Part shown: in pieces, positions 20,904-29,328 of the stretch
Layout: the number at the start of each line of letters is the position of its first letter
How positions within the stretch are numbered: position 1 is the first letter of the stretch
NCBI GenBank assembly: GCA_038757895.1
Contig: JBCDGE010000012.1
Span: forward strand, 1-64,000
Origin: Planctomycetota bacterium
Lineage (GTDB): Bacteria; Planctomycetota; UBA1135; GCA-002686595
DNA: 64,000 bases
Reading direction: 5' to 3'
Translations under genes and position numbers: made by a program
Notes under the pieces: generated by a model
What the model was told of the DNA's origin: nothing
The model's input: the letters and a program-made list of their open reading frames with translations, nothing else
Databases searched by the model: none

Positions 20904-21305
20904 TCAGCTCAGCCCGAGCGCGGCGCGCAGCGGCGCATCGTCCGCGGCGGTGAGCTCGCCGTCCGCCTCGGAAGGGACGGCGGCGCCGCGCTCCACGAGC
21001 CGCAGCCCGACGGCCTGGGCGCCGAGGCTCGCCGCGGAGATCAGGAACGTGTCGCCCGACCGCGCATAGGCGCGATCCGGGTCGACGCCTGCCTCCAGCA
21101 GGACGTCCGCCATCGCGAGCGCGGCGTCCTGGCTCGCGAGGCCGCGGAAGACCGCGTCGCACACGAAGTGCAGCGGCGGCACCGCGTTCTTGCCGCCGGG
21201 CCCCCACCGCACGTCGGCGTCGGCGAGGGCAGGATCGCCGACGACGAGCCGCCGCAGCGCCTCCGCGTCACCCGCCTCGATCGCCTCCCGCACCTCGCCC
21301 GTCAT
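20904..21305 (-). CDS. Ankyrin-repeat protein (last gene of the trp supraoperon)
   Basis: Ankyrin repeats in 134 aa (EALRRLVVGDPALADADVRWG..., TPLHFVCD..., DVLLEAGVDPD...). ATG overlaps the DAHP-synthase stop (ATGA, 21302-21305). The rest of ORF 20904..22145 is spurious. Confidence 0.6.
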   Translation of the reverse strand: MTGEVREAIEAGDAEALRRLVVGDPALADADVRWGPGGKNAVPPLHFVCDAVFRGLASQDAALAMADVLLEAGVDPDRAYARSGDTFLISAASLGAQAVGLRLVERGAAVPSEADGELTAADDAPLRAALGLS

Positions 21306-22348
21306 GACGCGTGGGCGCCACGCTCGCGCGGCGCGAACGACCGCCCGACCGCGGCGCCAACGACGCGCGCCTCGGCGACGAGCGTGGAGAGCTCGCCGGG
21401 GAGCAGCGCCTGCGCGCCGTCGCTCTTCGCCTCCTTCGGCCGCGGGTGACACTCGACGGCGACTCCATCCGCGCCGGCCGCGACGGCCGCCCGCGAGAGC
21501 GGCGGGATCAGCGCCGGAATGCCGGCGGCGTGGCTCGGGTCGACGACGATCGGCAGGTGCGTCCACTGCCGCAGCAGCGGCAGGACCGTGAGATCGAGCG
21601 TGTTCCGCGTCGCGGTCTCGAACGTCCGGATCCCGCGCTCGCAGAGGATGATCCCCTCGGCGCCGAACGCGGCGAGGTACTCGGCCGCCTGGAGCCACTC
21701 CGCGATCGTCGCCGACAGCCCGCGCTTGAGCATGACCGGGATGCCCGCGCCCGCGACCGCCTTGAGCAGCGTGAAGTTCTGCATGTTGCGGGCGCCGATC
21801 TGGAGGCAGTCGACGCCGGCGTCGACGAAGGCCGAGAGATGCGCGGCATCCATGATCTCGGAGATGATCGGCATCCCCGCGCCGTCGCCGGCCGCCTTGA
21901 GCTGACGGAGGCCCTCCGCGCCGAGGCCCTGGAACGCGTAGGGGCTCGTGCGCGGCTTGAACGCGCCGCCGCGCAGGACGTGCGCGCCCGCGCGCCGCGC
22001 GACGTCCGCGACCTCCTCGATGACCTCCTTGCCCTCGACGCTGCACGGACCGGCGATGACCGTGATCCCGGGGCCACCGAAGGGGACGCCGCCGACGTCG
22101 ACGACGGTCGGCGAGTCGCGGAACGCCCGGTCGACGCGGCGCCACGTACCGCGAGGACGCTCGACGCGTTCGACGAGCGCGTGCGCCTCCAGCGTGTCGG
22201 CCACGTCGTCGGGGACGCTGTCAACGACGGCGAGGATCGGCCGGCGCGGCTCGCTGGACCGTGCGGTCCGGAGGCCGCGCGTCTCCAGGGTCCGGACGAC
22301 GGTCTGGACGTCGGCCTCGGCCGTGCCGCGGTGGAACGCGACGATCAT
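21302..22348 (-). CDS. 3-deoxy-7-phosphoheptulonate (DAHP) synthase, type I-beta with N-terminal regulatory domain
   Basis: KDO8PS/DAHPS I-beta core (VIAGPCSVE, GAFKPRTSPY, KRGL, ILCERGIRTF, DPSH). About 65-aa N-terminal ferredoxin-like extension. Confidence 0.85.
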   Translation of the reverse strand: MIVAFHRGTAEADVQTVVRTLETRGLRTARSSEPRRPILAVVDSVPDDVADTLEAHALVERVERPRGTWRRVDRAFRDSPTVVDVGGVPFGGPGITVIAGPCSVEGKEVIEEVADVARRAGAHVLRGGAFKPRTSPYAFQGLGAEGLRQLKAAGDGAGMPIISEIMDAAHLSAFVDAGVDCLQIGARNMQNFTLLKAVAGAGIPVMLKRGLSATIAEWLQAAEYLAAFGAEGIILCERGIRTFETATRNTLDLTVLPLLRQWTHLPIVVDPSHAAGIPALIPPLSRAAVAAGADGVAVECHPRPKEAKSDGAQALLPGELSTLVAEARVVGAAVGRSFAPRERGAHAS

Positions 22349-22578
22349 CGCGCGACCTCCCCCTCGAAGGGACGGCCGCAGCCGCGCTCGATCGCGCCGA
22401 ACACCTCGCGGAGCTCCTCGGCGGGGAAGTCACCCTCCGCGCGGCGCAGGAGGTCGGACGTGAACGGCTCGGCGGCCGACGCAGGCGCGCCGTCCCGGGC
22501 GAGGTCGCGCGCCAGCCGCGCGCGCTCGTCGAGCAGTCGGACGATGGCGCGGTCGAGGTGGGACAGGTGGGCTCGCAT
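22345..22578 (-). CDS. Chorismate mutase (AroQ class)
   Basis: LSHLDRAIVRLLDERARLARDL... is a typical short AroQ helix. 77 aa. Stop overlaps the DAHP synthase start (ATGA). Confidence 0.65.
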   Translation of the reverse strand: MRAHLSHLDRAIVRLLDERARLARDLARDGAPASAAEPFTSDLLRRAEGDFPAEELREVFGAIERGCGRPFEGEVAR

Positions 22579-27197: not shown

Positions 27198-27802
27198 CGC
27201 AGGCCACCTCCGACGGCGTCGAGCGCGACCGCCTCGCCAGCGGCCGAGAGGAACCGGGCAAGGAGCTTCGAGCCGAGCGGCGTGAGGATCGACTCGGGGT
27301 GGAACTGGACGCCGTAGCGCGGCAGCTCGGTGTGCTCGACCGCCATCACGGCGCCGTCCTCGGTCCACGCGACGAGGCGCAGCGTGTCGGGGAGCCGCTC
27401 GCGCTCGGCGCGAAGCGAGTGGTAGCGCCCGCAGGTCAGCGGCGAGTCGAGCCGCTCGAACAGCCCGCTGCCGTCGTGGTGCACGAGGCTCGACTTGCCG
27501 TGCACCGGCGCGCCGTCGACCTCCAGGACGCCGCCCTCGGACTCGACGAGCGCCTGGTGCCCCAGGCAGACGCCGAGCACCGGCGTCTCGCGCGGGAGCG
27601 CCTTCAGGAGTTCGAGCACGATGCCCGCGCCCTGCGGCCGTCCCGGGCCCGGGCTGATGACGACGGCGGTCGGCTGCATCGCGAGCGCTTCGTCGACGGA
27701 CAGCGCGTCGTTGCGCACGACGCGGACCTCCGCGCCGAGGGCGGCGAGCGCCTGGTCGAGATTGAAGACGAACGAGTCGTAGTTGTCGATCAGGAGGATC
27801 AT
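27194..27802 (-). CDS. trpG: Anthranilate synthase component II (glutamine amidotransferase)
   Basis: MILLIDNYDSFVFNL...GVCLGHQ...YGVQFHPES. ATG overlaps the trpE stop (ATGA). Confidence 0.85.
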   Translation of the reverse strand: MILLIDNYDSFVFNLDQALAALGAEVRVVRNDALSVDEALAMQPTAVVISPGPGRPQGAGIVLELLKALPRETPVLGVCLGHQALVESEGGVLEVDGAPVHGKSSLVHHDGSGLFERLDSPLTCGRYHSLRAERERLPDTLRLVAWTEDGAVMAVEHTELPRYGVQFHPESILTPLGSKLLARFLSAAGEAVALDAVGGGLR

Positions 27803-29328
27803 CGCGCGGCTCCCGCGGTAGCGGACTCGGTGGACGTGTTCGGCGAGGCGCCCGGCTGGAACGCCGGCGACGCGGCGACGCGCGCGGCCTCGAAGAGCGC
27901 GCTCGACTTGTGGAGCGTCTCCTCGTATTCGGCGGCGGGGTTCGAGTCGAGGACGACTCCCGCGCCGGCCTGGACGAGCAGCTTGCCGTTCGCGCAGACG
28001 ATCGTGCGGATGGCGATCGCGACGTCGAGGTCGCCCGCGCGGTCGAGGTAGCCGAACGCGCCGGCGTAGGCGCCGCGCGCTCGCTGCTCCAGGCCGGCGA
28101 CGAGCTCCATCGCGCGGACCTTCGGCGCACCGCTGACCGTCCCGGCGGGGAACGCGGCCGCGAGCGCGTCGAGGGCGTCGCTTCCCGGCGCGAGCTCGGC
28201 GCCCACGCGGCTGACGAGGTGCTGGACGCGCGGGAACTTGACGAGCGTCCGGTGCTCCTCCACCTCGACGGTGCCGACGCGCGCGACGCGACCGGCGTCG
28301 TTCCGCGCGAGGTCGACGAGCATGTCGTGCTCGGCGCACTCCTTCTCGTCGCGCCGCAGCTCGGCGCCGAGGTCGTCGTCCTCCGCAGTCGTGGCGCCGC
28401 GCGGTCGCGTGCCGGCGATCGGCACCACCTCGATGTGTCCGCCGCTGACCGAGACGAGGCGCTCGGGGGACGAGCCGACGAGCGTCTTGCCGTCGGCCTC
28501 GAAGAAGAACATGTGCGGCGCGGGGTTCACGAGGCGCAGCACGCGGTAGAGCGTGAACGGGTCACCCTCGAAGCGCTGCTCGAAGCGCTGCGACAGCACC
28601 GCCTGGAAGATCTCGCCCTGTCGGATCGCCTCCTTGAGCGACTCGACGCCGGCCTCGAACTCCTCGCGCGTGGTGAGCGCGGTCGGCTCGTCGTCGAGGA
28701 GTCGGAAGCCTTCGTCGACGGGCTCGGCGCCCTCGAGGCTCGCCGCGATCCGCTCGACGCGCGCGCGGGCGGCGTCGGCGTCCGGAGCGCCGTTCGGCGC
28801 CGCGCACAGGATCGTGCACGTCTGCGCCGCGTGGTCGAACGCGACGACGTCGGGGTAGTGGTCGAAGACCGCCTCCGGCTCGTCGCCGGCGTCCGCGGGG
28901 CGGGGCACGCGGGGCTCCAGCGTGCACGCCCACTCGTACGAGAAGGTGCCGATCCAGCCGCCGCGGAAGGGCGGGAGGTCGGGGTGCGGGACGCCGGCGC
29001 CGTCGCGGCCGCGCCGCCGCGACGCCTCGCGCAGCGCCTCGTGGGGCGAAAGGTCGAGCGTGTCCTCGGTCCCGTCGGAGCCGCGCAGCGTCGCCGCGGC
29101 CCGTCCGGCACGGAGCGAGCCGTCGGGGTCGAGGGCGACGAAGCTGTACCGCGCGAGCCGCTCGGGCCCCTCGACCGACTCCAGCAGCGCGGCGTGGTGG
29201 CCGGCGCCACGGAGCTTCTCGAAGGCCCGGACCGGAGTGGTCCGATCTGCGGGCAGGACGGCCCAGACGAGCCGGTGTCGTTCGGTGTCCTCGGGGGTCG
29301 AGGCACGGAGGGGTCGCGCGGCGTTCAC
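27799..29328 (-). CDS. trpE: Anthranilate synthase component I
   Basis: Chorismate-binding enzyme C-terminal motifs (GGYxG..., ...SSPERLV, GAGIV). 509 aa. GTG start (VNAARPL...). Confidence 0.9.
   Translation of the reverse strand: MNAARPLRASTPEDTERHRLVWAVLPADRTTPVRAFEKLRGAGHHAALLESVEGPERLARYSFVALDPDGSLRAGRAAATLRGSDGTEDTLDLSPHEALREASRRRGRDGAGVPHPDLPPFRGGWIGTFSYEWACTLEPRVPRPADAGDEPEAVFDHYPDVVAFDHAAQTCTILCAAPNGAPDADAARARVERIAASLEGAEPVDEGFRLLDDEPTALTTREEFEAGVESLKEAIRQGEIFQAVLSQRFEQRFEGDPFTLYRVLRLVNPAPHMFFFEADGKTLVGSSPERLVSVSGGHIEVVPIAGTRPRGATTAEDDDLGAELRRDEKECAEHDMLVDLARNDAGRVARVGTVEVEEHRTLVKFPRVQHLVSRVGAELAPGSDALDALAAAFPAGTVSGAPKVRAMELVAGLEQRARGAYAGAFGYLDRAGDLDVAIAIRTIVCANGKLLVQAGAGVVLDSNPAAEYEETLHKSSALFEAARVAASPAFQPGASPNTSTESATAGAAR

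Follow-up and report, generated by a model that had tools for sequence, protein, structure and literature searches.

A probable lineage-conserved operon of Planctomycetota joins the tryptophan genes, behind a putative leader peptide, to an AroQ-like mini-protein and a DAHP synthase

The stretch of DNA analysed here (the window) comprises 64,000 nucleotides (nt) of contig JBCDGE010000012.1 from a Planctomycetota bacterium (assembly GCA_038757895.1), with a GC content of ~72-75%. [quoted passage not shown] We consider it fairly probable that this locus is a lineage-conserved planctomycete operon, made up of a leader peptide and hairpin, trpEGDCFBA, a mini-protein of the AroQ type that is probably a partner of DAHPS, and the DAHPS itself, with the ankyrin gene as a passenger. 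The first-pass annotation of this DNA had described ten genes on one strand joined by eight 4-nt overlaps of start and stop codons, and this layout was confirmed at every position. Over the operon region the DNA is identical to contig JBCCOM010000067.1 of the Planctomycetota metagenome-assembled genome (MAG) GCA_039025375.1, and the gene boundaries exactly match the independent gene calls made on that assembly. The features are listed below in the direction of transcription.

29468-29578, minus strand: leader peptide ORF, 36 codons, ATG start, MTSLHATTSTRGTQQRWSWRWWCQQGPGCSRALGRS; four Trp codons within six codons (RWSWRWW)
29498-29510, minus strand: tentative candidate for an antiterminator segment, immediately 3' to the Trp codons, that may pair with the 5' arm of the hairpin (from folding only)
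29386-29419, minus strand: perfect 15-bp hairpin, GC-rich, -33.3 kcal/mol, terminator-like, between leader ORF and trpE
27799-29328, minus strand: trpE, anthranilate synthase component I, 509 amino acids (aa), GTG start; Chorismate_bind 295 bits, with Anth_synt_I_N
27194-27802, minus strand: trpG, glutamine amidotransferase component, 202 aa, ATGA overlap with trpE; Pfam GATase 166 bits
26172-27197, minus strand: trpD, anthranilate phosphoribosyltransferase, 341 aa, GTGA overlap; Glycos_transf_3 271 bits, with Glycos_trans_3N
25366-26175, minus strand: trpC, indole-3-glycerol-phosphate synthase, 269 aa, GTGA overlap; Pfam IGPS 224 bits
24698-25369, minus strand: trpF, phosphoribosylanthranilate isomerase, 223 aa, ATGA overlap; Pfam PRAI 87 bits
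23445-24701, minus strand: trpB, tryptophan synthase beta, 418 aa, ATGA overlap; TIGR00263 566 bits, above cut-off, and Pfam PALP
22588-23448, minus strand: trpA, tryptophan synthase alpha, 286 aa, ATGA overlap; Pfam Trp_syntA 230 bits
22345-22578, minus strand: mini AroQ-like protein, 77 aa, 9 nt past the trpA stop; profile homology, AlphaFold2 (AF2) fold and context
21302-22348, minus strand: type I-beta DAHPS with an N-terminal ferredoxin-like (FL) domain, 348 aa, ATGA overlap with the mini gene
20904-21305, minus strand: ankyrin-repeat gene, 133 aa against ~211 aa in homologues, ATGA overlap with the DAHPS gene; alignment to homologues

The seven Trp-branch enzymes, contiguous and co-directional in the order E-G-D-C-F-B-A, are all recognised by Pfam with scores far over its cut-offs (87-295 bits). 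Among NCBIfam models, trpE matches TIGR00564 (anthranilate synthase component I) best, with 470 bits under an equivalog cut-off of 517.7, and the N-terminus following from the GTG start aligns with the ATG start of trpE in one of the relatives described below (L105). The overlap reads ATGA at trpE/trpG, trpC/trpF, trpF/trpB, trpB/trpA, CM-like gene/DAHPS (CM, chorismate mutase) and DAHPS/ankyrin gene, and GTGA at trpG/trpD and trpD/trpC, which makes eight in all, the junction between trpA and the mini gene being a gap of 9 nt; GGAGG-like motifs can be read ahead of most of the internal starts. In operons, overlaps of 4 nt commonly mark genes that are translationally coupled (PMC6728339). A terminator or promoter separating trpA from the CM-like gene, the arrangement that at first pass had been named as the one that would break up the supraoperon, has no room in the 9-nt gap of the window or in the 4-nt overlap of its relatives. 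A terminator-consensus scan of 19.5-31 kb gave 2 sites, with 1.8 expected, none of them at a gene junction or between trpA and DAHPS. The sigma-70 consensus scan of the same interval gave 0 promoters, a result that is uninformative since this consensus does not cover planctomycete promoters. Against a single transcript it has to be said that an internal promoter may lie within trpA or further upstream. At the other end of the operon, a 131-aa ORF (29325-29720, minus strand), the TGA stop of which overlaps the GTG of trpE (GTGA), was weighed as a candidate for an eleventh gene and discarded: it is absent from the genes called in L094, overlaps the leader ORF in another frame and has the proline/arginine-rich composition typical of off-frame GC-rich DNA, and is probably spurious.

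What has been conserved at this locus is a unit of nine genes, namely trpEGDCFBA, the gene for an AroQ-like mini-protein of 72-98 aa and the gene for the FL-type I-beta DAHPS. Eight genomic contexts were inspected (the window and the loci L082, L083, L103, L104, L105, L106 and L107); the mini gene directly follows trpA in 8/8, and in every contig that extends beyond it the gene for DAHPS comes next. Relatives therefore keep both the DAHPS and the CM-like gene behind trpA in every context inspected, a point for which the first-pass annotation had suggested a check. The clean long contigs L106 and L107 carry the complete trpE-G-D-C-F-B-A, mini, DAHPS series with overlaps at all junctions, trpA/mini included (4 nt at seven of them, 8 nt at the other), and in both contigs DAHPS is the last gene of the unit, with a convergent gene beyond it. 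The same trpEGDCFBA-mini-DAHPS order is found in L105, in an assembly riddled with frameshifts. The proteins of the relatives are 38-71% identical to those of the window, gene order and overlaps being kept at about 50-65% protein identity, and in GC content the relatives span 53-72%. Since the unit and its coupling architecture are kept in relatives as divergent as these, they represent a long-lived feature of the lineage, not a local accident, and the overlaps cannot be put down to chance.

The L105 locus (3896-10004 of the 3.65-Mb contig CAWUQY010000014.1) deserves a separate remark, as most of its trp genes are called as two or three fragments (trpE 354 aa, trpD 83+234 aa, trpC 128+118 aa, trpB 183 aa). 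These splits are likely to be indel errors of long-read assembly, not signs of pseudogenisation.

The tenth gene has a different history. Its inclusion at first pass as a member of the operon is not borne out as far as conservation goes: no ankyrin gene stands at the 3' end of the operons of L105-L107, which end at DAHPS, and a full-length homologue occurs in unrelated neighbourhoods in four other genomes. The window ORF is recognisable only via these homologues (208-221 aa, with precomputed Ank/Ank_2/Ank_4 matches), its own match to Pfam Ank_4 being 18.2 bits under a cut-off of 22.7. It aligns with them at both ends and lacks ~78 internal residues, deleted in frame, and a frameshifted ORF was rejected on the strength of this alignment. 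Two sequences from other samples with 98% DNA identity (L081 and L096) both diverge from the window exactly at 21233, in codon 24 of the ankyrin gene, and past this breakpoint L096 continues with a convergent histidine-kinase-like gene. At its 3' end the operon looks like a hotspot of recombination or rearrangement, or possibly a recurrent assembly break. Given its homologues in unrelated contexts and its absence from the relatives, the ankyrin gene was rejected as a functional member of the operon and would be a decayed, strain-specific passenger. Its stop (20904-20906, minus strand) lies 6 nt from the stop of a convergent peptidase M48 gene (end at 20897, plus strand); because this gap leaves no room for a shared terminator, termination must fall inside the opposing coding region.

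The mini gene was the least easily classified member of the unit. An initial search with the 77-aa protein returned eleven close homologues of 76-77 aa, an exhaustive profile search gave about 48 mini-family clusters at 50% identity, and a word-indexed profile search at least 119 clusters at 90% identity (68-132 aa, nearly all 70-100 aa), of which all that are named belong to Planctomycetota. Distant matches of the metagenome scan for this family (L084-L093) are CM domains of P-protein (PheA) and were rejected as members. Several true members carry the label chorismate mutase in the JGI annotation. The family has invariant residues across 36 sequences despite a mean column identity of 34%, and the ratio of nonsynonymous to synonymous substitution rates (dN/dS) of the mini gene is 0.32-0.46; both results argue that the ORF is under selection.

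Single-sequence comparison with known chorismate mutases stays below the family cut-offs, at 20.5 bits for Pfam CM_2 (cut-off 27; residues 2-28 only) and 17.4 bits for TIGR01797 (cut-off 73.7). In hhalign, the alignment of the mini family matches an alignment of canonical AroQ proteins with 97.7% probability and an E-value of 1.7e-12. The latter alignment was composed of the Escherichia coli chorismate mutase (EcCM), Terriglobia CMs and P-protein CM domains; the numbering of its EcCM sequence reproduces the published catalytic positions. The AF2 model of the mini-protein (predicted local distance difference test score, pLDDT, 89; predicted template modelling score, pTM, 0.72) was compared with the PDB by Foldseek, and the top 14 matches are all AroQ folds, with template modelling (TM) scores of 0.65-0.73 for the top AroQ CM matches. 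DAHPS-linked proteins account for 13/14 of them, including 2d8d (Thermus thermophilus, named DAHPS/CM), 5go2, 5gmu, 5j6f, 3nvt and 3tfc, and such entries outrank the free-standing EcCM, the Helicobacter pylori CM and the CM of Mycobacterium tuberculosis (MtCM). A search of PDB sequences agrees, its best matches being 2d8d and 5j6f. As judged from profiles and from the predicted model, the mini-protein is a true AroQ relative with the three-helix AroQ fold.

The active site tells another part of the story. In EcCM numbering the AroQ site is formed by Arg11', Arg28, Lys39, Asp48, Arg51, Glu52, (Ser84) and Gln88 (PMC5526877). The mini-protein keeps the equivalents of Arg11 and Arg28 (R2 and R19), and a deletion at the H1-H2 loop removes some 9-14 residues, the region of Asp48 among them. 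Lys39 aligns to Gly30, a glycine that is invariant in the close family and unconserved in the wider one; Ser84 aligns to the conserved Cys67, and neither Glu52 nor Gln88 has a conserved equivalent. By comparison, the regulatory CM domains of DAHPS have the full set of polar active-site residues conserved even though their activity is weak (PMC5526877), and because residues retained even there are missing here, we do not file the mini-protein as a chorismate mutase. Its nearest neighbours in sequence and structure are DAHPS-linked, and its gene is invariably coupled to that of DAHPS by 4 nt, which leads us to infer a DAHPS-associated role. Going by these comparisons, it probably serves as a partner of DAHPS with no or very weak catalysis of its own, not as an enzyme of the phenylalanine/tyrosine (Phe/Tyr) branch.

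Several observations temper this assignment. The register of the H1-H2 deletion is ambiguous, so that the conserved D42-x-x-R45 could represent Asp48 and Arg51, and R/K28 sits two residues off the position of Lys39; the alternative register still leaves Lys39, Glu52 and Gln88 unaccounted for. The dN/dS values of 0.3-0.46 are rather relaxed, the Foldseek and PDB E-values are weak (0.01-0.6) owing to the small size of the protein, and there may be residual or complex-activated CM activity, as in MtCM. Two rival explanations have therefore to be weighed here. The first is that of the first-pass annotation, that the 77-aa gene encodes a functional chorismate mutase, which would bring both the entry into the pathway and the Phe/Tyr branch point under Trp attenuation. 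The label stands as far as AroQ homology and fold are concerned, both carboxylate-binding arginines are kept, the JGI labels agree with it, and the Terriglobia loci described below have a canonical aroQ at the same spot between trpA and DAHPS. It fails on the sub-cut-off Pfam and NCBIfam scores, on the H1-H2 loop deletion and on the absence of equivalents of Lys39, a residue essential in EcCM, and of Glu52 and Gln88, to which the comparison with the regulatory CM domains of DAHPS adds further weight. A Phe/Tyr branch enzyme inside the operon is doubtful for the same catalytic gaps, and we hold a working mutase at this position to be improbable.

The second rival is that the mini-protein resembles MtCM in being a crippled CM that gains activity only when bound non-covalently to the co-translated DAHPS, with which it would engage in reciprocal allostery. 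The constant translational coupling of the two genes and the DAHPS-linked CM domains among the structural neighbours fit such a complex, and known non-covalent CM-DAHPS complexes alter both activities (PMC5526877, PMC7762937). On the other side, MtCM retains equivalents of Lys39 (Arg46) and Glu52, which the mini family does not, and the partner of MtCM is a type II DAHPS, whereas the partner here would be an I-beta DAHPS with an FL domain of its own, so that this explanation, too, has only a small chance of being right. The M. tuberculosis complex (PMC7762937) nevertheless offers a precedent for a small, intrinsically poor AroQ protein acting through association with DAHPS, with the differences that the catalytic residues of MtCM are retained, that its gene is not adjacent to that of its DAHPS, as the mini gene is, and that the interaction proposed here is purely inferred.

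A parallel to a non-catalytic or very weak DAHPS partner is provided by the CM-like domains of other I-beta DAHPS enzymes (5go2, 3nvt, 5j6f), which have little or no catalytic role and transmit inhibition by chorismate or prephenate (PMC5526877). Those of Bacillus subtilis, Listeria monocytogenes and Geobacillus are among the nearest neighbours of the mini-protein and are likewise tied to an I-beta DAHPS, but they are fused to its N-terminus and keep all polar active-site residues, whereas in the window the AroQ module is a separate 77-aa polypeptide and the N-terminus of DAHPS is taken by the FL domain. Within the limited coverage of our literature search, no paper describing the mini-AroQ family was found.

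The DAHPS itself is well classified. It matches NCBIfam NF006421 with 408 bits (cut-off 335), residues 1-337 falling on model positions 1-336, and its catalytic barrel is recognised by Pfam DAHP_synth_1 (PF00793; 245 bits) and by TIGR01361 (343 bits, above cut-off). The match of residues 1-63 to Pfam DAHP_snth_FXD is under the cut-off (20.5 bits, cut-off 27), homologues align from residue 1, and the NF006421 match takes in the N-terminal ~70 residues, which makes the earlier label of a regulated-type DAHPS a fair one. A contig scan with the DAHPS as query returned relatives of at most 52% identity from many phyla and was dominated by universal motifs of the GARNMQNF type; it was here that the arrangement in Terriglobia, treated below, surfaced. 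The loci gathered also hold a recurrent linkage of another kind, in which a pheA-like gene for a CM-prephenate dehydratase (~370 aa) lies on the same strand 1-2.5 kb upstream of an FL-type DAHPS (L003, L025, L034, L046, L054, L065, L069, L074 and L076, from Nitrospirota, Omnitrophota, Verrucomicrobiota and a MAG labelled Deltaproteobacteria); this is a further recurrent aro linkage group.

Upstream of trpE, the 339-nt intergenic region that separates it from the divergent NfeD/flotillin genes holds the trp leader. The leader ORF is the sole short ATG ORF with at least three clustered Trp codons on either strand of the window, and 0/5000 dinucleotide-preserving shuffles give as many as three Trp codons in a stretch of six, the highest number being two, which 14 shuffles attained. 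The 5' end of the hairpin is 48 nt downstream of the stop of the leader ORF. In 4/4 genomes having upstream sequence there is a leader ORF in which 2-4 Trp codons are clustered, with a strong hairpin after it, the leaders of the relatives reading MRTVRRWWWRG... in L105, MHTKRHERWWWAG... (..HERWWWAG..) in L106 and MKQMLQQSWRWP... (..QSWRWP..) in L107; in these three a GC-rich hairpin and a T-run stand right before trpE, and the hairpin energies across the window and its relatives range from -20 to -33 kcal/mol. The comparative pattern of leader ORF and hairpin is strong evidence, of a sequence-based kind, for control by a leader peptide, and the description of the operon as Trp-attenuated was thus a reasonable one. 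A similar combination of a short ORF with Trp codons and a GC-rich hairpin upstream of trpE is known from the classical trp attenuators (E. coli trpL; Corynebacterium, Streptomyces), from which the window differs in its longer leader (36 codons), in a hairpin lacking a U-run and in having no Rfam match; nor can the classical four-segment scheme (1:2 / 2:3 / 3:4) be drawn for it, the only alternative structure being the tentative pairing of a segment after the Trp codons with the 5' arm of the hairpin.

This pairing was found by folding. When the A-site of a ribosome is set on the first Trp codon and the RNA is cut off ahead of the 3' arm, 11/15 nt of the 5' arm pair with the post-Trp segment, and the same pairing recurs in L105, L106 and L107 with 5-6 nt each; its interpretation as an antiterminator is tentative. 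A clean switch between terminator and antiterminator was sought by ribosome-masked minimum free energy (MFE) folding and was not obtained, beyond this weak candidate.

The case for attenuation has points against it as well. The window hairpin is directly followed on its 3' side by UCGCGUACC and not by a U-run, it persists in constrained MFE folds at every ribosome position tried, and the candidate antiterminator rests on 5-11 paired nt. No Rfam leader or riboswitch family was found in the whole window at the gathering threshold or in the leader region at E<=1, where the single match was unrelated and at chance level; the T-box and the known trp-leader models were rejected on this ground. It may be, then, that the window hairpin is not an intrinsic terminator and that the leader ORF works otherwise, by Rho-dependent polarity or translation control, or is a relic. 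The missing U-run, the failure of the terminator scan to report this hairpin and the lack of a clean antiterminator in constrained folds speak for such an account; the conservation of leader ORF and hairpin in four divergent genomes, three of them with T-runs, and the highly non-random cluster of Trp codons in the shuffle test speak against it. Terminators of very GC-rich genomes, moreover, often have poor U-tracts, though this is debated. On balance we think a non-terminator role unlikely and retain leader-peptide attenuation as the preferred explanation. No paper on leader-peptide attenuation of trp genes in Planctomycetota was found in a literature search of limited coverage.

The first-pass annotation had called the placement of DAHPS and a CM-like gene in a Trp-attenuated operon an unusual wiring. 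The genes do form one tightly coupled, co-directional unit; the position of DAHPS behind trpA has precedents. In metagenome contigs of unidentified organisms from the Sargasso Sea, trpA is followed after 3-20 bp by DAHPS (aroG/aroH) in the same orientation, an arrangement taken in that study to mean that DAHPS is co-expressed with the trp genes and that entry into the pathway is under Trp-linked control (PMC2395257). For these contigs there is no description of an AroQ-like gene in between, of a leader peptide or of an overlap pattern, whereas the window has a mini-AroQ gene and an FL-type DAHPS joined by 4-nt overlaps. Four loci from Terriglobia (Acidobacteriota) among 80 diverse DAHPS loci are a further precedent (L027 2509-6103, L049 1149-4258, L051 7411-11020 and L057 7262-12029). 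They have trp(C-F)-B-A followed by a canonical aroQ and an FL-type DAHPS, so that trpA, an AroQ-type gene and an FL-type I-beta DAHPS stand on one strand in the same order as in the window, and in L027, L049 and L057 the next gene is tyrA-like (prephenate-dehydrogenase-like). The Terriglobia AroQ (~95-105 aa) has its Lys39, Arg51/Glu52 and Gln88 motifs intact, in contrast to the mini-protein, which lacks equivalents of Lys39, Glu52 and Gln88; the genes are separated by gaps of ~90 nt with no overlaps, and the DAHPS is ~45% identical to that of the window. The Terriglobia arrangement would be an independent or an ancestral version of the same gene order, with the CM intact.

Supraoperons that link the whole trp operon, or nearly the whole of it, on one strand to genes of the common pathway or of the Phe/Tyr branches are also known from Bacillus subtilis (aro-trp-hisH-tyrA-aroE), from Nostoc/Anabaena and from Desulfovibrio vulgaris (aroA'-aroB'-pheA-aroF-tyrA-trpEGDCFBA) (PMC1173090). 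They differ from the window in gene content and order, none has a degenerate mini-AroQ coupled to DAHPS, and that of B. subtilis is regulated by TRAP, the operon of the window by a putative leader peptide. The wiring of DAHPS to the Trp genes is therefore uncommon but not new in kind.

Taken together, these elements suggest how the operon might work. The whole unit would be made as one transcript with translationally coupled ORFs, and read-through past the hairpin would depend on the stalling of ribosomes at the Trp codons of the leader, so that charged tRNA-Trp would set the expression of the Trp branch together with this DAHPS, and a shortage of Trp would raise the supply of precursor. The AroQ-derived mini-protein, as a non-catalytic or very weak partner, would be produced stoichiometrically with DAHPS; it would probably bind the enzyme and/or sense a dicarboxylate resembling chorismate or prephenate via its Arg11 and Arg28 equivalents, doing in trans much of what the fused CM-like domain does in the DAHPS of Bacillus, Listeria and Geobacillus. 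The ankyrin gene would have no part in this beyond being carried along. A classical case of Trp control over a DAHPS isozyme is E. coli aroH, which is under TrpR; the control logic proposed here would match it, achieved in this case by membership of the operon.

Whether Trp would control entry into the whole pathway, as had been proposed from the gene order, depends on the DAHPS of the operon being the only one in the genome. It may instead be one of several isozymes, dedicated to Trp like AroH in E. coli, an organism with multiple DAHPS isozymes, in which case Trp would tune only a share of the entry. FL-type DAHPS genes with no trp genes nearby occur in other Planctomycetota (L021 Isosphaeraceae, L037 Planctomycetaceae, L061 Gemmataceae), and several DAHPS per genome are common, e.g., in Geobacter (PMC2700814), while the 64-kb window holds no second DAHPS or CM-like ORF. 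We give such a Trp-dedicated isozyme not quite an even chance.

If the account of a leader-controlled operon with a DAHPS partner is true, one lineage has tied the supply of precursor by DAHPS to the Trp branch through operon membership combined with leader-peptide attenuation, and a stripped-down chorismate-mutase fold has been kept beside DAHPS over long evolutionary time. DAHPS is a model for the evolution of allostery by recruitment of modules, be it an FL domain, an N- or C-terminal CM domain or the non-covalent MtCM, and a free-standing, apparently non-catalytic AroQ protein together with an FL-type DAHPS would be a new pairing that lends itself easily to biochemistry, both proteins being small and soluble. 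Going further, and with distinctly less confidence, one may speculate that the AroQ-derived proteins of 70-100 aa in this Planctomycetota lineage form an undescribed class of dead 'pseudo-chorismate mutases' that serve in trans as an allosteric subunit of FL-domain DAHPS. One enzyme would then have two sensing modules, the FL domain for amino acids and a free AroQ dimer for chorismate or prephenate, placed under a leader that senses tRNA-Trp and that would be the first attenuator described in the phylum. For annotation, mini ORFs of this family are named 'hypothetical' or 'chorismate mutase', and counting them as CM may wrongly imply the presence of a Phe/Tyr branch enzyme.

Outside the operon, no tRNA was found in the window. 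Its stretch from 34000 to 40000 has a GC content of 0.58-0.65, against about 0.72 elsewhere, and may have been horizontally acquired; on the minus strand it includes ORFs with HATPase_c (36319-37218) and with a helix-hairpin-helix (HHH)/RNA-polymerase-alpha-CTD-like domain (35064-35720), along with two large ORFs without a Pfam match (37163-39193 and 39072-43310). Divergent from trpE, at 29744-32076 on the plus strand, lie the genes for a membrane protein of 210 aa (NfeD_TM-like in the public gene table) and for a flotillin-like SPFH/Band 7 protein with a long charged coiled-coil tail, a pair that looks like a typical NfeD-flotillin operon.

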